Shown: in pieces, positions 9,595 to 63,908 of the stretch | How positions within the stretch are numbered: the stretch's first letter is position 1 | Layout of the letters: each line of letters starts with the position of its first letter | Assembly (NCBI GenBank): GCA_951406725.2 | Contig: OX597819.1 | Location: 109,430,001-109,494,000 of the forward strand | Length of the DNA stretch: 64,000 nucleotides | Source of the DNA: Octopus vulgaris | Lineage: Eukaryota | Direction of reading: 5' to 3' | The notes under the pieces: model-generated | Seen by the model: only the letters and a program-made list of their open reading frames with translations | Database searches by the model: none | Told to the model about the DNA's origin: nothing | Position numbers and translations under genes: made by a program

Positions 9595-9773
9595 GATATA
9601 TGTATATATATATATAATTATAATCAAGATTATAAACGACAGAATTAATACCAGTATTAATTCTGTATTAATACCAAAGCGCAATATTGGTTTTCAATTT
9701 GATTACGCACTGCAATGGCCGCTTCAGTGACAGATGTCCACGAAAATTCGACTGTTATGTCGCTGCTGGACAT

Positions 9774-9820
9774 CTGTCACTGAAGAACCTATAGCAGGGC
9801 GAAATCACGTGATCTGGCAG
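9774..9820 (+). ncRNA. Type I hammerhead ribozyme motif
   Basis: cuguca-CUGAAGA-accu-auagc-agggc-GAAA-ucacguga-UC-uggcag. Helix I is 6 bp (cuguca/uggcag), helix III is palindromic (AUCACGUGAU), helix II is imperfect. Confidence 0.7.
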
Positions 9821-9930
9821 TTACGGCGGCCGTAGCAGACGGTTCTGATTTGTCAACGATGTAGTTACGAGTACTTTTATGGAACACAAGTCCATACGAG
9901 AGATCTCTCAAGTATTCTGTTCTGACACAA

Positions 9931-10412: not shown

Positions 10413-10629
10413 GTGGAGGCGCGTGACTCAGTGGTTAGGGTGTTGAACTCATGATCGTAAGGTTGTGGTTTCGATTCCTGGACCGGGCGATGCGTTGTGT
10501 TCTTGCGCAAAACACTTCATTTCACGTTGCTCCAGTCCACTCAGCTGGCAAAAATGAATAATCCTGCGACCCGTCCAGGTGGGGAATTTCTACGCCATTG
10601 AAAGCGGGAAACCGGCCCTCGTAAACTCT

Positions 10630-10630
<1 letters not shown>
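10413..10630 (+). mobile_element. SINE family C (tRNA-derived head), embedded in (TA)n
   Basis: A-box-like tgactcagtgg, B-box-like gtttcgattcc, then gtgttcttgcgcaaaacacttcatttcacgttgctccagtccactcagctg. Related copies lie elsewhere in the window. Confidence 0.8.
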
Positions 10631-10685
<55 letters not shown>

Positions 10686-13558: not shown

Positions 13559-13632
13559 ACTTTCTCTCTCTCTCTCTGTATATATATGGTAAATGAAAGA
13601 CGGAAGATGGAATATACGGGAATTTATTATTA

Positions 13633-13738
13633 ACCACTATAGTTGTTTCGACACATCTAGCATCGATCCCTCACGTGTGGGATACTCAACAACTGGTTCA
13701 GGAACATCCGGCGGAGCATATGTGTCTCATTGGGTGAT
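13633..13738 (-). ncRNA. Degenerate hammerhead in the inverted pLTR copy
   Basis: Minus strand reads aucac-CCAAUGA-gacacau...augugucGAAAC-aacu-AUA-guggu. Core mutated relative to the copy at 14980-15085. Confidence 0.6.
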
Positions 13739-14042
13739 AAATAGACACAACAGATATAGGAATCAGGATGCTCTCTGGTTCAACCCGATTTTTAGTTCGC
13801 ATGTTTCAACCAAGATCGCTGGAAATTTTTTTGCCGCTTTGGACAAATGTTTTCCTAAATCTAATCGATATCATGCTATTTTAATCGGTACACCGTGAAG
13901 GTATTCTACGCCAAATCTGCTAATTTAGAGTAGCTTATGCATCGAATAAACAATAATAAAATGCGACAAAGGTTCAATAACCCACCTACCGGATCTAGCG
14001 AACATACGTATTTAAATACTAACAAAAGAGATGTAAACCGCA

Positions 14043-14408
14043 ATGAAAAAACACCAATTACAGCCAAATAATAGTAAAAATGCTTATGATACAGCTAACA
14101 CGGTAACAACGTCAGTAAAAGGAGTCAAAATTGCCTTATATACAAATAAATATGATGAATGCTCATGCAGAGATAAATCAAAATGCCCGTTAATGAACAT
14201 CTGCATGAGTACAAATCTTGTATATAAATGTACTGTGCACGCAAGGGGAGGGCCGTATATTTACATTGGGCAAACGGCGGGTTCATTTAAGAATCGTTAT
14301 CGTAACCATGTCGCCATCTTTAAGACAATCAATAAGAGGCATTCAACATCTTTGGCCGATTTTGTATGGCGACTGAAGGAGGATAAAATTAAGTACAGCA
14401 CAACATAG
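14043..14408 (+). pseudogene. Penelope-type GIY-YIG endonuclease fragment
   Basis: Cys cluster followed by VY...YIG...FKNRY.NH motifs, with flanking stops and frameshifts. Confidence 0.85.
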
Positions 14409-14979
14409 TAAAGCACGTGAAACCATTCAATATCATTTCTAGGAGATGCCGCCCCTACTCCGAGGAATCCCTGTCTATTCTGTGGACTAATGAAAATATC
14501 ATTAATAGAATTTCTGAAAGACTCTCAAGATTCCTACACGCATATAAATGTACTTTCGTACAACGCAGTGGGAATGAATTTGAGTAACTGTTAACCTAAT
14601 TTATTTTAAGGTATGGATGAATTAAGTTTAGTTTTAACCTCCCCATTCTTAAAAACACCAAGTAGCTATTTAACTCGCTTTGTGATCGTGAGTGCACCGA
14701 ACCACACGTGCGTGTATGCTTACATTTTTGCGGATGCTTGTACGAGCGTGTGTACATGCGCCATGTAGCTTGAGCGAGGGCGTTTATACATCTATATTTG
14801 TTATCGGTTGTTTTAAATACTTATCTTGCTGTATTGCGTGTTCGTTTCTTTTTTGCATTTGTAATTTTATTTTTGATCTTCTATGTAAATGAAGATGTTT
14901 CCTTCGTCTGTCTGCCTTTCTTTCTACGAAATGAGAAGGTACATTGCGGAACTGTTATTTTAACGAGTTGTGTCTATTT

Positions 14980-15085
14980 ATAACCTGACGAGATACATCT
15001 ACACCGCTGGATGCTCCTGAACCAGCTGTTGAGCGTCCCACCCGTGAGGGATCGATGTTAGATGTGTCGAAACGATTGTCGTGAT
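14980..15085 (+). ncRNA. Type I hammerhead ribozyme in the Penelope pLTR, with extended helix II
   Basis: CUGACGA at 14985-14991. 10-bp helix II gauacaucua/uagauguguc (14992-15001 with 15059-15068). GAAAC-gauu-GUC at 15069-15080. Helix I auaac/gugau (aucac in the other copy). AATAAA at about 15090. Confidence 0.82.
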
Positions 15086-15852
15086 TAATAATAAAATATC
15101 GTATATTCCATCTTCTTTCTTTCCTTTACCATATACATAACGATTATTGTGAAAGTGACCGTGCTTTACCAGTAAGCTAACAGGTGTAAACCATTCGTTT
15201 TATCATCTAATATATATATATATATGTATGTATATATATATATATATATAAATATATATACATATATATATATAATATATATATATATATGTATATATAT
15301 ATAATATATATATATATGTATGTATGTACATCTATCTATCTATCTATTCGCACACACACATATGTATACATATGCATAAGCGCATACACATAGAAACACA
15401 GAAATACAGTGGCCACCATAAGTCGAATAATTACGCAGTTTAAAATTTTTTATATTTTTAACCTTTTAAATAAAATTGATAATCAATTCATACAGTAATA
15501 TAAAGAAATTAATAAGCACTTAAAGCGGATAATAAAGATTTCTTTGATAATAACTTTATTTAAATTATTTTCTCAAAGACTTCGTGGTATTAAATTTCAC
15601 GGGTCTATAAATTTAGAAATGCAAATAAAAGTTACAAAACTTGTTTAAGTTCGTGATTCTAGGCCAGCATTTCGCATTATTTTTAATAGTATTATGGTAG
15701 TTGCAACACTACAAATGGGAAAGCAAAAAAAAAACAAACAAACAAAATACCCAGTTTGTTGACTATGAGACGGGCGTACATTATTTAGTTGTATGAGTAA
15801 GGCATACCCAGTGGGATATTTTTTTAATGTCTAAGTAGATGTCATTCATTCT

Positions 15853-16245
15853 TATTTCTTTATTGCCCACAAGGGGCTAAATATAGAAGGGACAAACAAG
15901 GACAGACAAAGGGATTAAGTCGATTACATCGACCCAGTGCGTAAGTGGTACGTAATTTATCGACCCCGAAAGGATAAAAGGCAAAGTCGACCTCGGCGGA
16001 ATTTGAACTCACAACGTAACGGTAGACGAAATACCTATTTCTTTATTACCACAGAGGGGACAAACAAGGACAGACAAAGGGATTAAGTCGATTATATCGA
16101 CCCCAGTGCGTAACTGGTTTTTAATTTATCGACTCTGAAAGGATGAAAGGCAAAGTCGACCTCGGCGGAATTTGAACTCAGAACGCAACGGCAGACGAAA
16201 TACCGCTAAGCATTTCGCCCGGCGCGCTAACGTTTCTGCTAGCTC
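15853..16245 (-). mobile_element. SINE family B (tRNA head plus Nin/Deu-like domain), internally duplicated dimer
   Basis: Two tandem body units, each with B box gagttcaaattcc and a gcctttcatcctttc.g.gtcgataaatt-like domain, but only one A-box head. Confidence 0.88.
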
Positions 16246-16643
16246 ATTCTGACATTCATTCTGTGTGAAGTGCAGAACACCTCCAGAGACGCAGGCAACT
16301 GTCCGCCATAGAGTTCTATAGCAGATCTTTTCCTTTAGGAACATAGCGGGGCAATGCAACAAACCTTGCAAACTACATTTGGTTCTTGAAAGTGAAAACG
16401 GTGGCACATTATGTTATTTACAAAATAAGGTTATGTGAAAGATCCCTTAAGCTATCAAACCCATGCAGAAGCCAGTAACGACACATAATATATGCAACTT
16501 TATATACAATGTAATGAAATGATCCACCATCTCACCCACTCCTTTTTGAATTACTTAGCTTTTTGAAAATTGGGTAGTAAGGAGTTGAGTCCAAAGCTTT
16601 GTTAGAGTTGATGGTAATTAGGGTAGGTCTTGAAATTTTCGTT

Positions 16644-17304
16644 GTTACTCTTTTACTTGTTTCAGTCATTTGACTGTGGCCATGCTGGAGCACCGTCTAT
16701 TGTCGAGCAAATCGACCCAAGGACTTATTCTTTGTAAGCCTAGTACTTATTCTATCGGTCTGTTTTGTCGAATCGCTAAGTTACGGGGACGTAAAGACAC
16801 CAGTATCGGTTGTCAAGCAATGTTGGGTGGGGGTGGGGGGACAAACACAGACACACAAACATATCCACACACATACAAATATATATATAGGCGCAGGAGT
16901 GGCTGTGTGGTAAGTAGCTTGCTAACCAACCACATGGTTCTGGGTTCAGTCCCACTGCGTGGCATCTTGGGCAAGTGTCTTCTGCTATAGCCCCGGGCCA
17001 ACCAATGCCTTGTGAGTGGATTTGGTAGACGGAAACTGAAAGAAGCCTGTCGTATATATGTATATATATATGTGTGTGTGTCTGTGTTTGTCCCCCTAGT
17101 ATTGCTTGACAACCGATGCTGGTGTGTTTACGCCCCCGTCACTTAGCGGTTCGGCAAAAAGAGACCGATAGAATAAGTACTGGGCTTACAAAGAATAAGT
17201 CCCGGGGTCGATTTGCTCGACTAAAGGCGGTGCTCCAGCATGGCCGCAGTCAAATGACTGAAACAAGTAAAAGAGTAAAAAGTATATATTTATATATATA
17301 TATA

Positions 17305-17351
<47 letters not shown>

Positions 17352-17574
17352 TATATATACATACACACACACGCACACACACATATATATATACATACAT
17401 ATATACATATATACGACGGGCTTCTTTCAGTTTCCATCTATCAAATCAACTCACAAGGCTTTGGTCAGCCTGAGGCTATAGTAGAAGACACTTGCCCAAG
17501 ATGCCACGCAGTGGGACTGAATCCGGAACCATGTGGTTTGTAAGCAAGCTACTTACCACAACCACTCCTACGTC
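16644..17574 (-). mobile_element. SINE family A, split by a nested opposite-strand copy (3' half 16644-16889, 5' half 17412-17574)
   Basis: The two halves are colinear with the reverse complement of the family consensus and are interrupted at the internal (TA)n tract. Confidence 0.88.
16890..17283 (+). mobile_element. SINE family A, full length (tRNA-derived, CORE-like box, internal microsatellite, LINE-like tail)
   Basis: A box tggctgtgtgg, B box ggttcagtccc, cttgggcaagtgtcttc, and tail ggcggtgctccagcatggccgcagtcaaatgactgaaacaagtaaaagagtaaaa. Confidence 0.92.
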
Positions 17575-17829
17575 TTATTGAAGTTATTAAGTATTGTTTG
17601 TGTTGTGGTGGACTCCCCAGGTGGGAAGTGGGTTAGTCCATTACTAATGAACTGTCAGTAACGTCAATCGGCGATAGTAGGCCGTTCGGACCAGTCCCGC
17701 AGAGACGACGAAATACGTTGTCATCATGGGACATATCAGTGGCGACGAGGATTTGGACAATATCGCCTCTGATATAACAGTTTGTGAGTAGTGTGGTAGG
17801 TTCAGTGTAGTTGTTTGAATTAATCTTAT

Positions 17830-21966: not shown

Positions 21967-22136
21967 ATTCAAAAGGTGTGCCGAGTAGTGTGACACGTTA
22001 CCAAAAGGTATGCGCGCGGTAGAACTGTTTGCTACTCAACTCTTATCTTCGATGTGGTAGGACGTTCTTCATGACTCCAGAGTATGCGGAGTCTGCAACT
22101 GTGTCATATTTTCATGAAACATATGTACTTTATATA

Positions 22137-22333
22137 AAGGGAGAGTTTATGAAAAAAACAAAAGACGAAGACAGTTGGTGTACGAAACAAACAGATGTAT
22201 AACGCTCAGGAATAGAAAAAGTCTTTTATGTTTCGAGCCTACGCTCTTCTACAGAAAGGGACACAGAAAAAAAGGAGATAAACAAGGAGAGAAAAAAATG
22301 TGTGTAGTGGCTAACGATCTATCATGGGCGACT
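22137..22333 (-). mobile_element. About 200-bp non-coding dispersed repeat carrying a minimal hammerhead (solo pLTR or retrozyme-like); second copy at 50442-50648
   Basis: Reverse complement of 50442-50648. Flanked by the direct repeat actttatataaag (22127-22139 and 22331-22343). Confidence 0.8.
22223..22258 (-). ncRNA. Minimal hammerhead-like motif (CUGUAGA variant; this copy has GAAACAUA)
   Basis: Minus strand reads cuuu-CUGUAGA-A-GAGC-guag-GCUC-GAAAC-AUA-aaag. Confidence 0.6.
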
Positions 22334-22375
22334 TTATATAAAGCATGAATACCTCTACGTTTTCTGTGTTACTTC

Positions 22376-25299: not shown

Positions 25300-27082
25300 T
25301 CTATAGCAGATGTGATAATGTGAAAGTCCCATCAGTGGATGTATAATATAGTGGCAGCTATAACATTGAAACTATTTCATTAACTGTATATTATTTTGAT
25401 GATGACTATAACGTAGAAGATCCATTATTAAATGTATATTATGGTGATGGCTATAGCTTAGAAGCGCCATCATTTCTGTAAATTATTTTGGTGAGGGCTA
25501 GAAGTTAGAAGCCTAATCAGTGGAAGTATATAATGGTGGAAGCTATAGCGTAGAAAAAATACCGTCATTGATTGTGTATTATGATGATGATTATAGCGTA
25601 GAAGCGCCATCATTAGGTGTACAGGGTACGTAAATTATTTGAGGACGTACCTTTTTTGCGTCATTGCTGCATGTTTTGCTAACTCTGTATAATCTTTGTT
25701 TCAGAAAATAATAATGGCGCATCCCCAGCTTACTCAAGAAATGAAGAGGCATGCTGTTATTGTGGTTATAAAGGCTGAACATAACGATTTAGAAATATCT
25801 CGAGTTTTAAAAGTTGCTAGATCTTTCGTCTACAAAGTTTGTAAGGAGTTAGAGACTGAAGACGGAAACGTATCACCAGTATCAAAGCATTCTAAACGCT
25901 TTGAAATCATTAGAACACTTGAATTTATCCAGCAAGTTCACCAGACCATTGATTGCAGTCCAGGAAAGTTCATGAGGTCATTTGCAAAAAAAAAAAAAAC
26001 CACGTGTCAGAAGGAACAGTCAGATATATTGTCAACGAAGACATCAGATATAAGTCTTATATGATGAGGAAAGGTCAATTTGTCAGAGAAAGCAAAAGAA
26101 AAAATCAATATATCAGATCTAAAGGGCTTTGAAACAAACTGAAAAATCCAGCAGAAGATTTGATTTTTTCTTTTCAAACGAGAAAAACTTAGATCAAAAA
26201 GTTAACAGAAGAAATGACAGATGGTTATGTGCGGACCCTTCTGAAGTTCCAAGTGTTATGCAAATAAAATTTCCTGCAATTGTTATGGTTTTAGGAGTTG
26301 TCAGCAACGAAGGACATGTGATGCTTCCTTACTTCTTTCCATAAGGCCTTAGAGTTAACTCTGCCGCCTACATTGAAGTCCTGGAAATAATTGTTAAACC
26401 CTGGATAGGCCATATATGTTTCAGTAAGACTCTGCACTATCACACATGGCTCTAGTAACAACGGAAAGGATGGCTGTAAATTTTCATGATCACATAAGCC
26501 CTAACATTTGGCCTCCTAATTCCTCAGATCTCAATCAATTGTTGAGAGAGAGGTCAATGAACACACCCATAACACCAAAGGTTCTTTGAAAGCTGCCATA
26601 GTGAGAGTAATATCGAAAATGAACCAGGACCACTTGATTCAAAAATTTAGATGACTTACATCTCATATAGAAGCAGTTGTTGAAGCTGAAGGTGGCTTTA
26701 TTGAATAACATCATAGAAAAGAAGGTATATTTTTATCCTCATAGCATTTTTTGATATATAAAGTTATTATGTTATGATATATGTTTTTTTTATATCAACA
26801 TAAATCTGTCCTCAAATATCTTACACACCCTGTATATTAATATGATGACTATAGAGTAGAAGCTCCATTATTGACTGTATATTATTATGATGACGGTTAT
26901 AGACTATAGCATAGAAACTCCATCATTGGATGTATATTATGGTGGTAGCTATAGCGTAGTAACCCCATCATTGGATTTATTATATTGTGGTAGCTATTGC
27001 GTAGAAGTCCCATCATTAGTTGTATATTTTGATGATAGTTATAGCGTAGAAGCTGCATCATTGACTTCACATTATGGTGGTT
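25300..27082. repeat. Degenerate minisatellite of about 45 bp (gctatagcgtagaagcgccatcattggatgtatattatggtg...), interrupted by a DNA transposon
   Basis: Units visible at 25300-25620 and 26833-27082, with 45-bp spacing (for example 26947 to 26992). Confidence 0.85.
25622..26832 (+). mobile_element. Tc1/mariner-superfamily transposon (maT/DD37D-like), decayed full-length copy
   Basis: TIRs cagggtacgtaaattatttgaggac and gtcctcaaatatcttacacaccctg, with TA on both sides. Transposase fragments: an N-terminal HTH, FFSNEKN...NRRNDRW, VMVLGVVS and WPPNSSDLN. Confidence 0.9.
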
Positions 27083-27383: not shown

Positions 27384-28320
27384 ATCATCATCATCATCAT
27401 CATTGTTCGACCGTGGTCGAGACAATGGAATTTACTATGCTACGCCAGACTTCACGGTCCATCATGGCATTACGGAGGTCCTGTTGCTGGATGCCTGTAT
27501 CCCTAGAGATTACATCAGGGTAGGAGAGTGTGCGCCCTCTGGCATTGCGAGTAGATGGCTTCCAGAGGAAGAGAGTAGAAATTACCTCTTTTTCAGTTCT
27601 ACAACAATGTCCAGCAAACTGGACTCTCCCACCTTTCACAAGAGATGACACAGGTGGTAGTTTCCCATATATTTGCATTTTGGTTGGATGGCGCCTCCAC
27701 GAGAGATTTTGAGCTCTCATAAGGAGGCGAGTGTAGGTTCCATCCAACCGCCTCTCAAGCTTCTTTGATAACGTCCAGGTTTCTGAGCCATATAGTAGAA
27801 TTGGTTCGACTGTGGCTTTGAAGATTTCAAGTTTGAAGTCTCTACTTAGATTTGATGACCAGATCTTATGCTTGTCATTACAGGCTGACCAGGCCATACC
27901 CTTTCTAGTTAGAAAGTCTTTTCCAGATGATGATATGTATGACCCAAGATATTTGTAATCAGAAACCATATTTAAGGGCGCATTGTTGAGAGAATGGATG
28001 ATGCAATCACTGTTGGACAGGCACTTGTTTATATATTCAATCTTGGCCTCATTGAGGTAAAGACCTACACAATTTGAGGCTTGTTCGAGAGATTGTAAAA
28101 GAGACTGGGCATTGGAGAGAGAATCACTGATAAGAGCGATGTCGTCAGCTATGTCAGTGTCTGTCAAGTATTCAGCTGGGTGTCTGGAACTTCTTCTTGG
28201 TTTTATTTCAAAGCCCTTGCCAGAGATGGTATCAACTGACATACGTAGCACATAGTCAACGACAATGATGAAAAGAAATGGGGCGAGTGTGTCTCCCTGC
28301 AGTATTCCGGCTAAGCATAC
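27384..28320 (-). mobile_element. 5'-truncated RTE-clade LINE with (TGA)n tail
   Basis: ORF 27400-28332 has GILQGDTLAPFLF, IADDIALI, YKYLGSYI, ILLYGSETW and MDREVW. The tail (atc)n starts at the stop codon. Confidence 0.92.
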
Positions 28321-28332
28321 AAATGCACTCAA
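27400..28332 (-). CDS. RTE-like reverse transcriptase C-terminal fragment (5'-truncated copy; open frame, probably not expressed)
   Basis: 310-aa open frame with RT motifs QGD and xADD. Confidence 0.75.
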   Translation of the reverse strand: MSAFVCLAGILQGDTLAPFLFIIVVDYVLRMSVDTISGKGFEIKPRRSSRHPAEYLTDTDIADDIALISDSLSNAQSLLQSLEQASNCVGLYLNEAKIEYINKCLSNSDCIIHSLNNAPLNMVSDYKYLGSYISSSGKDFLTRKGMAWSACNDKHKIWSSNLSRDFKLEIFKATVEPILLYGSETWTLSKKLERRLDGTYTRLLMRAQNLSWRRHPTKMQIYGKLPPVSSLVKGGRVQFAGHCCRTEKEVISTLFLWKPSTRNARGRTLSYPDVISRDTGIQQQDLRNAMMDREVWRSIVNSIVSTTVEQ

Positions 28333-28839
28333 AGTTCATCCATAGGCAGTAAGCTGGCAGTGTTGTTAGAACATCGGATACAATGCTTGGCGATATTCGT
28401 TCTGACTTCCTGAGCTTTGAGTTGTAATCTTGCCGAAGTCAATTTTTATCATTCATCATTTTGGAGGTCGATAATGAATTACTAGTACTGGAGTAGACAC
28501 TTCTTATCTCTTCCTCTATCTCATAATGAGGTTCTCTGGAAGAAATCAGTTGTGTTCTGACTCGGAAATTCGTGGACTCTACCTGAAATATCGTATTGTA
28601 TATCATGAGATACAACTACAGCTCAATCAAGGCTTGAATTCCAGATATAAGCCATACATATGCACAAGAACACATATACGTATATCAGAATATATGCATA
28701 ATCATATCCTAGATGATATCGTCACAGTTAGTTATGTATCTCCTGCATCCACTTCAGTAACCTTCTGGAATTTTCTCTACACTATTCTTTTGCGAGCGGA
28801 CATTGACTGACAGATGTACATTAACCGCATCAGTCTCAT

Positions 28840-31554: not shown

Positions 31555-32470
31555 AAACGGAAAGCTGATGACAACTGTGGTGAACAACCATAAACGGAGA
31601 TATTGATAGCAGACATGATAACCGTGATGGACAACCATAAGCGGAGATATTCTTTTCTACTCTAGTCACAAGGCTCGAAATTTTTGGGGATGGGGCCAGT
31701 CGATTAGATCAACCCCAGTACGCAACTGATACTTAATTTATCGACCTCGAAGGGATGAAAGGCAAAGTCGACCTCGACAAAATTCGAACTCAGAATACAA
31801 AGACAGACGAAATACCGCTAAGTATTTCTCCCGGCGTGCTAACGTTTCTTATTTCTTTACTGCCCACAAGGAGCTACACAGAGAGAGGAAAAACAAGGAC
31901 AGACAAACGGATTAAGTCGATTATATTGACCCCATTGCGTAACTGATACTTATTTAATCGACCCCGAAAGGATGAAAGACAAAGTCGAACTCGGCGGAAT
32001 TTGAATTCAGAACGTAGCAGCAAACGAAATACCTATTTCTTTACTACCCACAAGGGCTAAACACAGAGGGGACAAACAAGGACAGACAAACGGATTAAGT
32101 CGATTACATCGACCCCAGTGCATAACTGGTACTTAATTTATCGACTCCGAAAGGATGAAAGGCAAAGTGGACCTCGGCGGAATTTGAACTCAGAACGTAA
32201 CGGCAGACGAAATACCGCTAAGTATTTCGCCCGGCGTGCTAACGTTTCTGCCAACTCGCCGTCTTCATACGCGGAAATATTGATGGTACAAAAGTGAATT
32301 ATGGTGAACAACCATAAACTGACATATTAATGGCACAGAGGTCCGCCACAATGAATAACCATAAACGGACATAATGATGACACAGAAGTCAACTGCAATG
32401 AACAAACATAAACGAACCTAGAGATGGCACATACATCAATTGTATTGAAAAGCAACCATAAACCGGACGT
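31555..32470. repeat. Degenerate tandem repeat of roughly 40-45 bp (acaaccataaacggagatattgatggcacag...), split by a SINE B multimer
   Basis: Units at 31555-31650 and 32265-32470. Confidence 0.7.
31650..32263 (-). mobile_element. SINE family B trimer
   Basis: Three head-to-tail units with B box and Nin/Deu-like domain; junctions near 32030 and 31848. Confidence 0.9.
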
Positions 32471-33580: not shown

Positions 33581-33741
33581 ATAAGGGCGTTCTTTATTAT
33601 TTGTTTTTAATCCTGAAGATGCTGGTTATCTTTTAAAATTGCAGTTAACCTTTGGCGTCCTTTTTAACCGAAATACTTGTACGCATGTTTGTCATTGAAC
33701 ATTATCGTCAACTTTGAAACTGTTTGTTAGCCCCGAAAACT

Positions 33742-34205
33742 CTTTTATCTTTTACTAGTTTCAGTCATTAGGTTGCGGCCATGCTGGGGCACCGACTTGA
33801 AGAACTCTAGTCGAACGAATGGACTCCCAGTACTTATTTTTTAAAAACCCCGTTCTTATTCTATCGGTATCTTTTGCCGAACTGCTAAGTTACGGGGACG
33901 TAGACACATCAACACCGGTTTTCAAGTGGGGGCGGAGGACAAACACTGGCAAAGGTACACACTCATAAGCATACACACACATGTATATATATATATATAT
34001 ATATAGGACGGGCTTCTTTTAGTTTCCGTCTACCAAATCCACTCACAAGGCTTTGGTTGGCCCCCGTCTACCAAATCCACTCACAAGGCTTTGGTTGGCC
34101 CCAGGCTATAGTAGAAGACACTTTACCAAGGTTCCACACAGTAGGACTGAACCGGGAACCCTGCGGTTGGGAACCAAACTACTCACCACACAACCACACC
34201 TGCGG
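33742..34205 (-). mobile_element. SINE family A with an internal tandem duplication
   Basis: ccgtctaccaaatccactcacaaggctttggttggccc occurs twice in tandem (about 34026-34102). Confidence 0.85.
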
Positions 34206-34488
34206 TTATGCATATCTTCCAAGATATAAGCAAGTCTTGTTCTAAGAAGAGCAATTGTATTTCGCAAACTTCGAATGATAAGAATAAGGCAGTTGAACCG
34301 AAGACGATGGTCAACAGACATTTCTATTTCACTGCCCGAAAAAATATCCGTTAAAATAATGAAAAATCAAAGCAATATAAAATAAACAAAAATATCGAAA
34401 ATTGTGTAAGGGATGCATTAAGTTATTACAGAAAGTTTTTTGGTTTTTTCCTAACATATGTAATGTCTTGCAAATTTTTACAGCATAT

Positions 34489-34650
34489 GCACAGAAAGTG
34501 GCTGTGTGGTAAGTAGCTTGTTTACCAACCACATATTTCCGGGTTCAATCCCACTGCGTGGCACCTTCGGCAAGTGTCTTCTACTATAGCCTCGGGCCGA
34601 CCAAAGCCTTGTGAGTGGATTTGGTAGACGGAAACTGAAAGAAGCCTGTC

Positions 34651-34719
<69 letters not shown>

Positions 34720-35190
34720 TGGTACATAATTATTGTGGCTTTTTTTCAACAAATTTTATTGAACAAAAACAAAAGCAACATTTAACAAAAACATCTTTAA
34801 ATGATTATTCCGGACCATATTCACCATCTACTTCAATTACGGCTTCCCATTTGCTTGGCAGGCTGTCAGACCGTCATTTAAAGATACCTTTGTTAAATAT
34901 TATTATTGTCTTTGTTGAATAAAATTTGTTGAAAAAAAGACGCAATAATTATGCACCAACTCAATATTTATACATGTATCCGTTTGTGTGCCTGTGTTTG
35001 TCCCCCATCATCGCTTGACAACCGATGTTGGTGTGTTTATGTCCACGTAACTTAGCGGTTCGGCATAAGAGGCCGATAGAATAAGTACTAGACATACAAA
35101 AAAAAATCCTGGGGTCGATTTCTTCGACGGATGGCGGTGCTCTTGCATGGCCACAGTCAAATGACTGAAACAAATAAAGGAATAAAAGAA
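34489..35190 (+). mobile_element. SINE family A with a mariner MITE inserted in its internal (TA)n
   Basis: 5' half at 34489-34652, 3' half at about 34980-35190. Confidence 0.88.
34714..34964 (-). mobile_element. Mariner deletion derivative (MITE) with inverted ends of about 55 bp
   Basis: ggttggtacataattattgtggc...caacaaattttattgaacaaa pairs with tttgttgaataaaatttgttgaaaaaaagacgcaataattatgcaccaac. The minus strand encodes SLPSKWEAVIEVDGEY, a mariner transposase C-terminus. Confidence 0.88.
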
Positions 35191-50432: not shown

Positions 50433-50441
50433 CATATATCA

Positions 50442-50648
50442 GACGCCATGATAGATCGTTAGCCACTACACACATTTTTTTTCTCTCCTTGTTTCTCTCC
50501 CTGTTTTTTCAGTGTCCCTTTCTGTAGAAGAGCGTAGGCTTGAAACGTAAAAGATTTTTTCTATTCCTGACCGTTATACTAATACATCTGTTTGTTTTGT
50601 ACACCACCTGCCTTCGTCTTTTGTTTTTTTTTGTAAACTCTCCCTTTA
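50442..50648 (+). mobile_element. About 200-bp hammerhead-bearing non-coding repeat (same family as 22137-22333), embedded in (TA)n
   Basis: gacgccatgatagatcgttagccactacacac...ccctttctgtagaagagcgtaggcttgaaacgtaaaaga...gtaaactctcccttt. Confidence 0.82.
50518..50553 (+). ncRNA. Minimal hammerhead-like motif (CUGUAGA core variant)
   Basis: cuuu-CUGUAGA-A-GAGC-guag-GCUU-GAAAC-GUA-aaag; helix I cuuu/aaag. Confidence 0.65.
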
Positions 50649-51108
50649 TATATATAATATAGGGGTTTAGTTCACAGCTGTTCTAAACGGATAGGTATGC
50701 TGGGTAAGTGCTATAATGGATTACCAGGGTTCCAAGCTCATAACCGAGACAGGAGTTATGGAACTATTATAGATTTCCAGTACAGCAGATGTAAATTTGT
50801 TAAAAAGGAAAACAAACGCCAAGGCAAGGATATCCAATTTATCCGCCAATTTATCCGAGGAAATCTTCAATAATTACGTCACATAGTAGCTCTAGCTACT
50901 AGCGGTTATACATACATATATACATACATACACATATACACATGCATACACACATGCAGATAATATATACATGCTTACACACACACGCACGCGCACGCAC
51001 ACATACGCACGCGCACATGTATATATATATATATATTTATATATCTATGCAGGTGTGTGTATGTATGTGAGTGTGCGTGTGTGTGTGCGCGCGTGCGTGC
51101 GTGCGTGC

Positions 51109-51510: not shown

Positions 51511-51536
51511 AATGTATATTTATATGTTTATATACA

Positions 51537-51695
51537 GGTGCAGCAGTGTCTGTGTAAGAAGTTAGCTTCCCAACCACATGGTTCCGAGTTCAGTCCCACT
51601 GCGTGGCACATTGGGCAAGTGTCTTCTAGTATAGCCTCGGGCCGACCAAAACCTTGTAAGTGGATTTGGTAGATGGAAACTGAAAGAAGCTCGTC

Positions 51696-51726
<31 letters not shown>

Positions 51727-51972
51727 TGTATGTATGTATGTATGTATGTATGTATGTATGTATTTGCATGTCTGTGTTTGTTCCCGCACCATCACTTGAC
51801 AACCGATATTGGTGTGTTTACGACCCCGTAACTTAGCGGTTCGGCAAAAGATGCTGAATGAATAAGTACTGGGCTTCCAAAGAACAAGTCATAGGGTCAA
51901 TTTGTTCGACTAAAGGCGGTGCTCCAGCTTGGCCGCAACCAAATAACTAAAACAAGTAAAAGAATAAAGAAT
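51537..51972 (+). mobile_element. SINE family A, full length, internal (TATG)n
   Basis: Colinear with 16890-17283. Confidence 0.88.
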
Positions 51973-52688: not shown

Positions 52689-53271
52689 AGACAAATAGAT
52701 AGATATACATGGGGAGAGAGAGAAAGATAAGTAGAGATAGGGAGTGAGAGAGTAAAATTTTGATTACTTCGACTACATTCAAGGTCAACGTGTTTTTCCA
52801 AAGAAAAGGTTGAGCATAAATGACGGTATCATATTAATTGGTATTATCTGGTATACAAGCATCCAAGAGAAGTTCTTTGTTGTTGTTCTAACTGCTAGAA
52901 ATATATGCTAAATCGCCCTCAGACTATACACTACCGTCTTAAAGAAAAGGTAGAGAAGTGCATAAGTAGTCTTGTTTACAATTTCTGGAAAATGAAGAGT
53001 AATCACAGCTGGATATCCTTTCATCATATTAGATCAAATCTGACATGGCGTTCAACAAGTTCAAAAAGTGCCCCCCTCCTCCTGCTCCTCGTCGTCGTCG
53101 TCGTCGTAGTCAACAACATTACTGTTTTAATTCTTTAATATGAAATGATCCAGTTTTTATAGCTGTTTATTCTTCCGGTCAAGTACCAAGGTGTAGATGC
53201 TTCTGCACTTCGGCACAATGCTGTCAGCTGTATAAAATATATCCCACTCTCTAAACACAAACCAAAGATAC

Positions 53272-53361
<90 letters not shown>

Positions 53362-53437
53362 CATACATACACACATATATATCACAGTATATATATATAT
53401 ATATATACGTACATATATACACATATGTATATGCATG

Positions 53438-53487
<50 letters not shown>

Positions 53488-53491
<4 letters not shown>

Positions 53492-53942
53492 CGTGATTTC
53501 AGCGATGGTTACGATGTCGTTAGCGAAACGGAGGTGGGTGAGGAGCTCGCCATTGATGTTGACACCGCCTTGCCAGTCGATGCCTCTGATGATCTGCTCG
53601 AGACATGCGGTGAAAAGTTTTGGGGAGATCGTATCTCCTTGCTTCACTCCCTTCTCGACCGGCATCGTACGGGTGATGACAGCAGAGCTATGTCGGTGGT
53701 GCATCCGGAATTTGCCTCCCTGAGCAGTTGCACATATTGCGCCTCGACTCCCTGCCTCTGTTGTCGAGTGGTACCCGCTCGAACAGAAACGACCACTCGG
53801 AAGGCCTCCACGACGGTGGAGTTACGATTTCAGGAGAACGATTGGGATCACGTGAATGAGAAAGGCGCGATCCAGAGAAGAGTGGACAGCGTGCTGTGAC
53901 CAGCGGTGTCAAATGGACGCTCGACGGGACTGGTCGGTCATG

Positions 53943-54602: not shown

Positions 54603-55226
54603 ATGTAAAATTTCTGAAGTTCGGTTGCCGTTGGGTGAAGAATTTCCAACTTTTTCAACAAAGTCAATCGGAAAAATCTGCGGGGGAACGGAACAGTTTT
54701 TCTTTATACCTACTCCATAAGATCTTGGATACTACCTCTCGATCTACGGATGAAAATAATCTTTTCCCCGCTCTCCGAAGAAAGCACTTGTTCGAAAACA
54801 TCGGGAACATTTCCCCCTGGGGCACATGAACTTATTAAACTTTACACTTATTAAACTTTACCAATAAATACATTCTTTGCAGACGGAAATTTGGTTTGAA
54901 ATACAGGTAGGAGCTGCTTTTGCACCTTTACTCAAGAGCAATCAAAGTTAAAGAAACTAACACACATAGAGATCTGAAACAATTTATATTGGAAATATCA
55001 TTTTGGATAACATCTCTTCACTAAAGTCTTACATAACCCGGAAGCCATATCAGAAATCTCGAATAATACTTCTGATGTTGATATTCATGTGGAAATAACA
55101 AAAACGAAATAGAAAAATCAGTAAGACGGACGAACAACTGTTAAGTCTATTGTCTAGACGCCATAAGTGCTAGTGTACTAAAAGTAAGATGAGAACGCAA
55201 CGCACGACATATTAATATTGAGCATA

Positions 55227-55626
55227 GGCGTAGGAGTGGCTGTGTGGTAAGTAGCTTGCTTACCAGCCACATGGTTCCGGGTTCAGTCCCACTGCGTGGC
55301 ACCTTGGGAAAGGGTTTTCTACTATAGCCTCGGGCCGACCAAAGCCTTGTGAGTGGATTTGGTAGACGGAAACTCAAAGAAGCCCGTCATATATATATGT
55401 ATGAGTGTGTGTTCGCGTGTCTGTTTGTCCCCCCCCCCCAACATCGCTTGACAACCGATGCTGGTGTGTTTAAGCCCCCGTAACTTAGCGGTTCAGCAAA
55501 AGAGACCGATAGAATAAGTACTAGGCTTACAAAGAATAAGTCCTGGGGTCGATTTGCTCGACTAAAGGCGGTGCTCCAGCATGGTCGCACTCAAATGACT
55601 GAAACAAGTAAAAGAGTAAAAGAGTA
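55227..55626 (+). mobile_element. SINE family A, full length
   Basis: ggcgtaggagtggctgtgtggtaagtagc ... gactgaaacaagtaaaagagtaaaagag. Confidence 0.92.
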
Positions 55627-57176: not shown

Positions 57177-58404
57177 TAAAGCGGTTTTTTCAATTGCATG
57201 AACTAAAAGTCGGAGAGGAACGGGATAAACTACCTGCATCAACTTACTATAAAAGCAGGTAGTAATTTTACCTTATCCTTATTCTTCGTGTAAGTTTTGA
57301 AGAGTGCAGTTCGATATTAACAGTTATTTTTTTCAAAGCTATAATGGAAGTGACAAAGGAGCATATTCGACATATTTTGCTTTATGAGTTCAATAAAGGT
57401 AACAACGCAACGGAAAGTGCGAGGAATATTAATGCAGTATATGGAGATCGGACAATAAGTATAAGCCAGTGTCAACGGTGGTTCCAGAAATTCAGAGCCG
57501 GAAACTACAGCCTAGAAGACGAGCCTCGACCTGGAAGATCTATGGAGCTCGATGAGGACTTTCTACAAATCCTGCTGGAACAAAATCTCATCGTAGCTAG
57601 CAGAGAAGCTTGGATTCAACCATTCATCGACACATGTGTGCCATCGGAAAAGTCAGCAAATTGGGTCAATGGGTTCCTCACAAACTTTCCGAGCCTAATC
57701 GCGAGCAGAGAGTGAATATATACTCTTCTTTGCTGTCACGTCTCACGAATGAACCTTTTTTTGGACTAAATATTGACTGATGACGAGAAATGGGTTCTCT
57801 ATGAAAATGTTAAGCGCCGAAGACAATGGGTAGGGAAAGGAGAAACACCGGCACTCCAGGCTAAAGAAAATCTTCATCCACGTAAGGTGTTATTATCTGT
57901 TTGGTGGGATATGAATGGTTTAGCCCACTTTGAACTATTAGTCCCAAACCAAACGATAATAAAGGAGATCTACTGCGAGCAGCTTAAGCGGTTTAAGTCA
58001 GCGGTAGAAGAAAACCGACCGTCTTTGGTTTCAATACGAAAGGTGTTCTTCCATCAGGATAATGCTTGGCCACACATAGCGAGGATGACATCCCAAAGCC
58101 TGGAGCAGTTTGAATGGGAAACGATGTCCCACCCACGATATTCGTCGGGCATTTCCCCATCTGATTAACATTTATTCCGCAGTTTACAAAGTCATTTGGA
58201 CGGAAAAAATATGAATTTTGTAGACGAGTTCAGAGCAGTACGGGAGGAGTATTTTTTCACAAGTGAATTTTGGAAGAGAGGTCTTGCAAGTCTACCAGAT
58301 TGATGGAAGAGCATTGCGGAAAATGAAGGAGAGTATATTTTAAATTAAAAAACAACTTGAAAAATAAAAGAAATATAAAAAAACCGCATTATGTATGGGA
58401 TGAC

Positions 58405-58855: not shown

Positions 58856-59468
58856 CGAAAAGGTGCTGAAAAGTTCCTGGCTTTAAGGCTGTCGCGAAAG
58901 GCCTGGTTGGAGGCCGAACATTCCGTGTTCTTTTACGGAAGAACCGCTTTAATAAGTGTATGAATCCGAGGGGAAAAGGATATGTTACTCTCTTTACTTG
59001 TTTCAGTCATTTGACTGCGGCCATGCTGGAGCACCGCCTTTAGTCGAGCAAATCGACCCCGGGACTTATATTCTTTGTAAGCCCAGTACTTATTCTATCG
59101 GTCTCTTTTGCCGAACCACTAAGTGACGGGGACGTAAACACACCAGCATCGGTTGTCAAGCAATGCTAGGGGGACAAACACAGACACACACACACACACA
59201 TATATATATATACACACATATACGACAGGCTTCTTTCAGTTTCCGTCTACTAAATCCACTCACAAGGCATTGGTCGGCTCGGGGCTATAGCAGAAGACAC
59301 TTGCCCAAGATGCCACGCAGTGGGACTGAACCCGGAACCATGTGGTTAGTTAGCAAGCTACTTACCACACAGCCACTCCTGCGCCTATATGTTGAATAAA
59401 AATCATAATTAACTGATCCTCCTGTATTTTCTTTTATCTAAAGCCAGGAACTTGTCAACGCCTTCTCG
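58856..59468 (+). mobile_element. Mariner-derived MITE (family of 39185-39398), interrupted by SINE A
   Basis: TA|cgaaaaggtgctgaaaagttcctggcttt ... aaagccaggaacttgtcaacgccttctcg|TA. Confidence 0.87.
58987..59385 (-). mobile_element. SINE family A, full length, with target-site duplication ATATGTT
   Basis: ATATGTT at 58980-58986 and 59387-59393; the host MITE sequence resumes after it. Confidence 0.93.
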
Positions 59469-61092: not shown

Positions 61093-61126
61093 GATCAATA
61101 TTTCTCCGCAATTTTTTTATCTCTGA

Positions 61127-61543
61127 GGCGTAGGAGTGGCTGTGAGGTAAGTAGCTTGCTTACGAACCACATGGCTCCGGGTTCAGTTCCACTGTGTGGC
61201 ACTTTGGGCAAGCGTCTTCTACCATAGCCTCGGACCGACGAAAGCCTTGTGAGTGAATTTGGTTGACGGAAACTGAAAAAAGCCCGTCGTATATATGTAC
61301 ATATATATGTATAAGTATGTGTGTGTATATGTTTGTGCGTCTGTGTTTGACCCCCCAACATCGCTTGACAACCGATGCTGGTGTGTTTATGTCCCCGTAA
61401 CTTAGCGGTTCGGCAAAAGAGGGGGATAGAATAAGTACTAGGCTTACAAAAAATAAGTCCTGGAGTCGATTTCCTCGACTAAAGGCGGTGCTCCAGCATG
61501 GCCGCAGTCAGATGACTGAAACAAGTAAAAGAGAGTAAAAGAG
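61127..61543 (+). mobile_element. SINE family A, full length
   Basis: Colinear with 16890-17283. Confidence 0.92.
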
Positions 61544-61544
61544 T

Positions 61545-61838
61545 ACCCCTTTGAATACCCTTTTATTCTGGTGGATCCCCATAAACATTCTATATTTAGA
61601 AACTAGTTTCATAGATACTTCTTTCATAATTCCTATTTTGTTTTTTCATACATTCACCTGTGTAGGCTGTACTATGTAAAATGTCAGAGAAAGAGACCAA
61701 ACTGTGTCTTGTCATAAATACATCTAATTCAAAGCTTTTCCTGAACCATTAAAATACTACTATAGACCCCCATGTCACTATTTTGCTTGCATGGAACCAC
61801 TCCCCATCTTATAAGGACCCCGGTTAAGAACCAATACT
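61545..61838 (+). mobile_element. Possible hAT-type non-autonomous element, right end
   Basis: The terminus ggaccccggttaagaaccaatactg resembles hAT MITE ends (...GGTTAAGAACCACTG). The left TIR was not found. Confidence 0.4.
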
Positions 61839-63673: not shown

Positions 63674-63908
63674 GGCGGCGAGCTGGCAGAATCGTTAGCA
63701 CGTCGGGCGAAATGCTTAGCGGTATTTCGTCTGCCGCTACGTTCTGAGTTCAAATTCCGCTGAGGTCAATTTTACCTTTCATCCTTTCGGGGTCGATAAA
63801 TTAAGGACCAGTTACGCACTGGGGTCGATATAATCGACTTAATCCGTTTGTCTGTCTTTGTTTGTCGTCTCTGTGTTTAGCCCCTTGTTGGTAGTAAAGA
63901 AATAGGTA
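63674..63908 (+). mobile_element. SINE family B monomer; another diverged head starts at about 63915 and runs off the window
   Basis: A box tggcagaatcg, B box gagttcaaattcc, Nin/Deu-like cctttcatcctttcggggtcgataaattaaggaccag, and tail ...gtagtaaagaaatagg. Confidence 0.9.

Follow-up and report, generated by a model that had tools for sequence, protein, structure and literature searches.

Minimal hammerheads of metazoan Penelope-like elements (PLEs) were described by Cervera and De la Pena (2014, PMC4209133), and their consensus runs from a U-rich stretch through CUGANGA-H, the G10.1-C11.1 pair, GAAAN, a palindrome and NU-H to an AU-rich stretch. The A at core position 6 (A6) is invariant in the 44 of 44 alignment rows seen from supplement file 2 of that paper. 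Solo derivatives of the PLE terminal repeat (pLTR) that carry minimal hammerheads are already known. PLEs make up 6.8% of one curated octopus genome (PMC13282606, PMC8967140). Given this content and the known solo pLTRs, the repeat described here is itself probably already in automated repeat libraries. Neptune and Naiad PLEs show a bias for insertion into (TA)n (bioRxiv 10.1101/2021.04.23.441226, PMC8557442), and the part played by the hammerhead in endonuclease-bearing PLEs is described as unclear, with RNA processing, a structural role or a parasitic ride as candidates (PMC8557442). For a PLE of the anole, insertion is not impaired by mutating the hammerhead and draws mainly on uncut RNA; the DNA that is cut is AT-rich, and ribozyme cleavage requires the protein (PMC11167929). 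Tandem arrays bearing canonical type I hammerheads are the defining trait of non-LTR retrozymes (PMC7229834; bioRxiv 10.64898/2026.07.22.740005). Activity is low when the CUGA turn carries a single mutation (PMC9901934), and one A6C variant that occurs in nature cleaves at less than 0.1 per min (PMC3088659). PLE hammerhead variants were surveyed in 2017 (RNA Biology, Lunse, Weinberg, Breaker, as cited in PMC6765202). The literature searched held no natural family-wide U6 core, a claim that the 2017 survey, outside this coverage, could weaken; matches to the A6U and U6 core strings appeared unrelated, going by listings and the beginnings of abstracts.

Here, we analyzed a family of short non-coding repeats found in a stretch of Octopus vulgaris DNA of 64,000 nucleotides (hereafter, the window). 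The family motif fits the published PLE minimal-hammerhead consensus in all but A6. It shares with the metazoan PLE motifs the type I topology and short stem I, the extra base between A9 and G10.1, the G10.1-C11.1 pair, a CG palindrome without a real stem III, a U-rich 5′ and AU-rich 3′ context and mostly solo genomic copies, and its 4-bp stem II lies at the short end of their range (PMC4209133). By contrast, position 6 is fixed as U in the family, whereas the only core variant given in that paper is U3-A8. Non-LTR retrozymes are likewise non-coding, about 200–300 nt long and low in GC, with one type I hammerhead per unit, a proposed pLTR origin, proposed use of PLE proteins and occasional solo monomers; unlike the family, which consists of (TA)n-inserted monomers with a minimal, non-canonical core, they are tandem, have a canonical core and form circular RNAs (PMC7229834; bioRxiv 10.64898/2026.07.22.740005). 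The anole element PAc (Poseidon of Anolis, PMC11167929) also has a PLE hammerhead internal to the insert and AT-rich targets, and the family would share its insertion of uncut RNA, but PAc is autonomous, with a canonical core and an ORF that begins inside the ribozyme. The A6C hammerhead of phage Bcep176 (PMC3088659) provides another natural substitution at position 6; it has C6, comes from one phage sequence and was measured to cleave slowly, whereas the U6 family is a high-copy animal repeat.

Results

Self-alignment of the window matched positions 22131-22327(-) to 50446-50652(+) with 89.4% identity over 207 columns (E 1e-73), which makes both of the copies claimed in an earlier note on this DNA real. 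The boundaries of these copies (A and B) had been called identical; their 5′ ends are in fact about 4 nt apart, copy A being the shorter one there, and copy A also lacks a 6-nt stretch present in copy B. The features of the two copies and of a third, truncated one are as follows.

22140..22330 (-), copy A, between two copies of a target-site duplication
22331..22343, target-site duplication on the 5′ side of copy A, 13 bp, with a perfect 12-bp palindrome inside
22127..22139, target-site duplication on the 3′ side of copy A, nine bases of which equal the end common to copy B
50440..50644 (+), copy B, inside a (TA)n tract; the hammerhead strand is pyrimidine-rich
50581..50586 (+), AATACA of copy B, 31 nt past the predicted cut; deleted in copy A
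10619..10640 (+), lone 3′ tip of the family (about 20 bp) with (TA)n after it; a 5′-truncated copy

The 13-bp palindromic direct repeat claimed for copy A is exact and contains a 12-bp palindrome, but nine bases of its 3′ member recur where copy B ends, so that the duplication extends into the terminus of the element itself. The repeat was found once, flanking copy A, with no other occurrence in the window. AATACA is a polyadenylation-signal variant, and in copy B it may be the functional counterpart of the AATAAA-like signal of canonical relatives, which lay no more than 60 nt after the motif in 35 of the 82 such relatives among the metagenome matches listed. The tip at 10619-10640 aligned with a score of 34-35, against a maximum of 24-25 in 500 shuffles. 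At 10413-10640, a SINE-like repeat is fused directly to this tip, both lying within (TA)n; the arrangement could be a template-switch chimera.

Scans of both copies for Pol III boxes, terminal inverted repeats and ORFs were blank, in agreement with the earlier note. No Pol III A-box (one mismatch or fewer) was present on the hammerhead strand of copy A or B, nor was an exact B-box present within either, so that neither copy has the paired A and B boxes of a tRNA-derived SINE. The listing of inverted pairs gave no terminal inverted repeats for copy A, and none for copy B among the five longest of 30 pairs, all of which were (TA)n; the sole terminal inverted pair was the palindromic duplication itself, which does not make the element a MITE. 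No ATG-initiated ORF of at least 20 aa lies wholly within either copy.

The CUGUAGA hammerhead motif reads in both copies as had been claimed, at the following positions.

22223..22258 (-), minimal type I hammerhead of copy A, core CUGUAGA at 22254-22248, U6 at 22251
50518..50553 (+), minimal type I hammerhead of copy B, stem I of 4 bp, stem II of 4 bp, 4-nt loop

The motif of copy A has a 4-bp stem I, an extra A, a 4-bp stem II with a 4-nt loop and then GAAAC, with the predicted cut at 22227/22226. In copy B, C3 is at 50522, U6 at 50525, N7 at 50526, G12 at 50542 and H17 at 50549; the palindromic ACGU occupies 50545-50548, and the predicted cut is at 50549/50550. Across the family, C3-G8, G5, A9, G12, A13, A14, A15.1-U16.1 and H17 are all present, as are the other hallmarks of a PLE minimal hammerhead, namely the extra base between 9 and 10.1, G10.1-C11.1 and the 4-bp stem II. 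The exception is the A6 of CUGANGA, which is replaced by U6 in both copies and family-wide. Copy B has U at 11.1, giving a G-U wobble at 10.1-11.1, where 84–97% of the family depth has C. Copy B retains an intact ACGU palindrome at 15.2-16.2 (dimer stem III), as does most of the family depth; copy A has an A at 16.2 that breaks it, so the descriptor applied below misses this copy. Stem I, which closes the motif, is a weak helix of 4 bp, three of them A-U and one C-G, and U replaces its outer G in 3–16%.

The U6 motif had two matches in the window and none in 100 shuffles. With positions 6 and 7 left free, the minimal-hammerhead descriptor matched copy B but not one of 20,000 dinucleotide-shuffled versions of it, nor any of 30 shuffles of the window; permitting any single core mismatch gave a match in 1 of 10,000 shuffles of copy B. 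Folding was no better than in shuffles for the isolated motifs (z -0.5 and +0.8) or the whole element (z +1.7). Rfam at the gathering threshold returned no matches in the window, with only (TA)n noise around copy B, and this threshold also missed both canonical PLE hammerheads of the window. We rejected an alternative register, with a U inserted after G5 and 50526 as A6: the A at position 8 would face C3, and 50526 is the variable site.

Two other properties of the core came to light. At 50520-50529 and 22247-22256, U6 and A7 make the ten core bases self-complementary, with two G-U pairs, and when two copies were co-folded the cores paired together and the hammerhead was not formed; in this model, core-core pairing is a possible off state. 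At 50480-50527 and 22249-22310, a pyrimidine tract followed by UAG at core positions 6-8 resembles a strong 3′ splice acceptor, and with such a tract in many copies the element could be exonized.

To describe the family beyond the window, we used 24 listed public sequencing runs; 20 of them, from four organisms, contain the searched stretch, and 12 contain at least half of 18 sampled words. Four of the 24 were analyzed, one per organism (X1, X5, X6 and X9), at 82% likeness and with letters listed from 3%. The numbers of contigs on the element (216 bases) were 21,180, 14,951, 7,691 and 11,296. What had been presented as a two-copy family is thus high-copy in all four runs; we infer a size on the order of 10^4 copies, contig depth itself not being a copy number. 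At position 6 (50525), every letter other than U was below 3% in all four runs, which bears out the claim that U6 is common to the family rather than copy-specific decay. The two other PLE hammerheads in the window retain A6, so U6 is not a genome-wide trait. Position N7 was polymorphic, with C at 5–10% and G at 4–10% besides A, and H17 had U at 3–16% besides A (contig depth in four runs). G12 was changed to A at 1.5–4.5%, the level of CpG change in the flanks. All letter shares are unphased contig depths rather than phased copies. Even with each of the three letters other than U taken to be just below 3% at position 6, U6 would have to accompany roughly half or more of the C7/G7 depth in X5, X6 and X9; X1 is uninformative.

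Setting CpG places aside and counting a place as polymorphic when a variant reached at least 3% in at least two runs, we observed polymorphism at both of the free positions (N7 and H17) and at 1 of 25 constrained places (Fisher p=0.0085). When loop II was counted as free, the comparison became 2 of 5 against 1 of 25 (p=0.06). Core and flank did not differ significantly (1/25 versus 18/127, p=0.14). N7 shows three states; tri-allelic places in the flanks numbered only 2 of 127. This evidence is mixed, and the variation at positions 7 and 17, which are free in hammerheads, suggests that the U6 core is still under selection. Depth peaked over the hammerhead in X5, X6 and X9, and did not in X1. 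Long loose ends before 50517 carried other upstream sequence, which meets the element at the motif. The depth peak and these joins suggest that diverged families have the U6 motif in common.

The ends of the element point to dispersal of single units. Among the best 24 of 856 loose ends, those at the termini were AT-rich and mutually unlike (agreement 0.41-0.61), and none lay at the predicted cut site, which is mid-element, some 110 nt downstream of the 5′ end and some 95 nt upstream of the 3′ end. We detected tail-to-head joints from 50632 to 50444 (one contig each in X5 and X9) and from 50627 to 50520 (X1), at depths below 100 against a summed element depth of 1e5-1e6. Within the window, no tandem array surrounds copy A and copy B gave just one match; in short-read contigs, arrays can go undetected. 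The family shows insertion into (TA)n or AT-rich targets, a variable duplication and 5′ truncation, as expected of a PLE derivative. With fixed ends in (TA)n or AT-rich DNA and rare tail-to-head joints, the family appears to be a dispersed non-autonomous PLE derivative, not a tandem retrozyme. The earlier note had proposed a successful retrozyme-like or solo-pLTR family: a successful non-coding element of solo-pLTR type agrees with our results, whereas the retrozyme likeness is weak, given the dispersed monomers and unlike AT-rich flanks. We are highly confident of PLE origin taken by itself, and the source was probably the pLTR of an endonuclease-bearing PLE of Neptune type.

A metagenome scan (at least 120 loci) yielded relatives of the scaffold, with no member of the family among the matches listed and no homology beyond the core among the 120 loci listed. 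Among the matches listed, 113 of 122 occurrences of the GAGC/GCUC scaffold had A6; of the 100 whose tail was intact, 97 did. The only intact-tail U6 match among those listed, L108, was rejected as sporadic decay, having its flanks in common with an A6 copy (L015). One locus, L039, has the GAGC/GCUC scaffold with A6 about 675 nt downstream of a frame with an RT (Pfam RVT_1, E 5e-8) and GIY-YIG motifs; its CxxC linker and GIY-YIG motifs, judged by eye, assign it to Neptune. L039 was the only one of 72 listed loci of at least 1.5 kb with RT and GIY-YIG motifs when the two longest frames were screened, which makes ORF-less copies the rule for canonical relatives too. The Neptune-type pLTR of L039 resembles the family in its GAGC/GCUC stem II, GAAAC-GU-H, the roughly 90-100 nt that follow the cut and an AATAAA-like signal located 20-30 nt past it. 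It differs in having A6 and an upstream RT-endonuclease frame, whereas the family is ORF-less, with a fixed 5′ end, unlike flanks and no homology to L039 outside the core. In two further loci (L062 1478-1547 and L064 606-687), pairs of canonical minimal hammerheads lie on opposite strands less than 100 nt apart, an inverted pLTR arrangement.

The window holds two other PLE relics, to neither of which the family has homology. One, at 13579-15139, is a separate decayed PLE with broken frames, a GIY-YIG-like domain (ESM Atlas score 0.96; Pfam blank), inverted terminal arms of 173 nt (84%) and, at about 14980-15085, a canonical CUGACGA hammerhead with a long stem II. It is not homologous to the U6 family, and a 3′-terminal motif common to both did not rise above shuffles (p 0.12-0.94). 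The other, at 9700-9830, is likely a short PLE remnant, a hammerhead-like motif with a CUGAAGA core and a palindromic stem III that adjoins a 41-nt inverted arm. We also considered an octopus Naiad as partner: the supplement of PMC8557442 gave no relevant motif match, its line breaks being able to hide motifs, and this candidate was rejected on the end shown for Naiad_Obim, which is unlike the family. Motif pattern scans of viral contigs and prokaryote genomes gave no match.

Discussion

The reading we favor, with a probability of about 0.45, is that the family is a dispersed, non-autonomous, short PLE-pLTR derivative that inserts from an uncut RNA template, its self-cleavage weakened by U6 and its fold constrained. 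Family RNA would arise by read-through or from a pLTR promoter, and a PLE protein with RT and GIY-YIG activities would bind it in trans, nick AT-rich DNA and reverse-transcribe from the fixed 3′ end in a target-primed manner, with TA microhomology helping. The template is most simply uncut RNA, because the copies run intact across the cut site. A6U would weaken self-cleavage, and a lone element that would otherwise be cut mid-length would gain from this; the rest of the fold may be kept for recognition by the helper protein or for slow, protein-assisted cleavage. Mobilization in trans and cleavage weakened by U6 are suggested by analogy with the dispensability of the PAc hammerhead and the low activity of CUGA-turn mutants and of A6C. 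Several observations count against this reading: the window, the 120 metagenome loci listed and the Naiad supplement yielded no autonomous partner, the core is not significantly less polymorphic than the flanks, stem I is weak, the isolated motif folds no better than shuffles, and the letter shares are unphased contig depths. Of the two options in the earlier note, a tolerated non-canonical core or spread after loss of catalysis, neither is singled out; the variant pattern leans toward a fold that stayed constrained after U6 was fixed and fits either slow cleavage or a non-catalytic role.

The same PLE origin would also allow the U6 hammerhead to be an active variant, helped by dimerization through ACGU or by a PLE protein, with activity itself conserving the core. 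Free variation falls only at the catalytically free positions 7 and 17, H17 changes to the permitted U and not to G, and C3-G8, G12 and the palindrome are retained apart from CpG-level change; moreover, natural core variants with low but real activity are known (PMC3088659) and PLE hammerheads can be protein-assisted (PMC11167929). However, A6 is present in all 44 published rows seen and in 97 of the 100 intact-looking metagenome matches listed, mutants of the CUGA turn are poorly active (PMC9901934), the element ends away from the cut site and tandem partners for a cis dimer look rare, and we regard an active variant as rather unlikely. A founder effect, in which A6U killed the ribozyme of one source copy and a dispensable, dead motif then spread unselected, would agree with the finding that hammerhead cleavage is unnecessary for insertion in vitro (PMC11167929), with Naiads thriving without canonical hammerheads (PMC8557442), with the non-significant difference between core and flank polymorphism (p=0.14) and with copies that are still 89% identical, leaving limited time for decay. 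It is harder to reconcile with three states at N7 against 2 of 127 tri-allelic flank places, with the H17 change going to a permitted base and with the sharing of the hammerhead alone with other upstream sequences, as indicated in three of four runs; we judge an unselected dead motif improbable, short of negligible.

The remaining explanations carry far less weight. A non-LTR retrozyme monomer, produced from tandem arrays through doubly cleaved circular RNAs and reverse transcription from a fixed start, would have the right size, solo monomers are common in such families (PMC7229834; bioRxiv 10.64898/2026.07.22.740005) and tail-to-head joints exist in X1, X5 and X9. The depth of these joints (below 100 against 1e5-1e6 summed), a copy A without an array, a single copy B, and the canonical hammerheads and longer stem I of retrozymes (PMC7229834) make this highly improbable. 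U6 might instead have been fixed as part of a 3′ splice acceptor formed by the pyrimidine tract and the UAG at 6-8, splicing then removing half of the core. The 40 nt upstream are 88–90% pyrimidine, copy A has a 60-nt AG-free stretch and the Drosophila Penelope intron runs up to the 5′ end of helix I (PMC4209133), but the C7 and G7 variants (10–20% together) abolish the AG, upstream U-richness belongs to the general PLE hammerhead consensus (PMC4209133) and no donor site or spliced read was seen, so that we give selection for splicing very little credence. Least credible is a hammerhead look-alike arisen by chance in a SINE, in a MITE or in a piece of some unrelated transposon: an Rfam hammerhead match and a linked ORF are both absent, yet none of 20,000 shuffles produced the motif, Pol III boxes and terminal inverted repeats are absent, the same scaffold sits in a PLE (L039) and the Rfam gathering threshold missed two canonical PLE hammerheads too.

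A high-copy family that has lost a cleavage-important base, yet whose core varies only where hammerheads are known to be free, offers a natural test of whether PLE hammerheads need to cut. Cleavage by the U6 motif would mean that the hammerhead core consensus is broader than believed; a motif that does not cut would make the family a natural case of a ribozyme fold retained for a non-catalytic purpose. Tentatively, and with the odds against it, we propose a U6 hammerhead class made up of several diverged PLE-derived families in at least four organisms and kept by selection, its members either cleaving (as dimers or assisted by protein) or serving as a non-cutting module recognized by protein. 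Standard descriptors demand CUGANGA (PMC4209133, PMC8557442) and so would miss the U6 family. If such a class is real, PLE ribozyme-like modules may be undercounted, including in clades said to lack them.

Other repeats in the window

Besides the PLE relics, the window contains LINE-type RT fragments at 27400-28335(-), which has an RVT_1 match, and at 53135-53821(-), which is split by microsatellites and blank in Pfam. A broken mariner transposase lies at 57266-58168(+), with HTH_48 and Transposase_1 matches, and a second transposase-like remnant, with weak matches only, lies at about 25693-26064(+). A 400-bp repeat family has many copies, at 16640-17580, 33740-35190, 51535-51970, 55220-55625, 58985-59400 and 61125-61545, and a second repeat family occurs at 15850-16245, 31700-32260 and 63676-63908. 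Both resemble abundant octopod SINEs.
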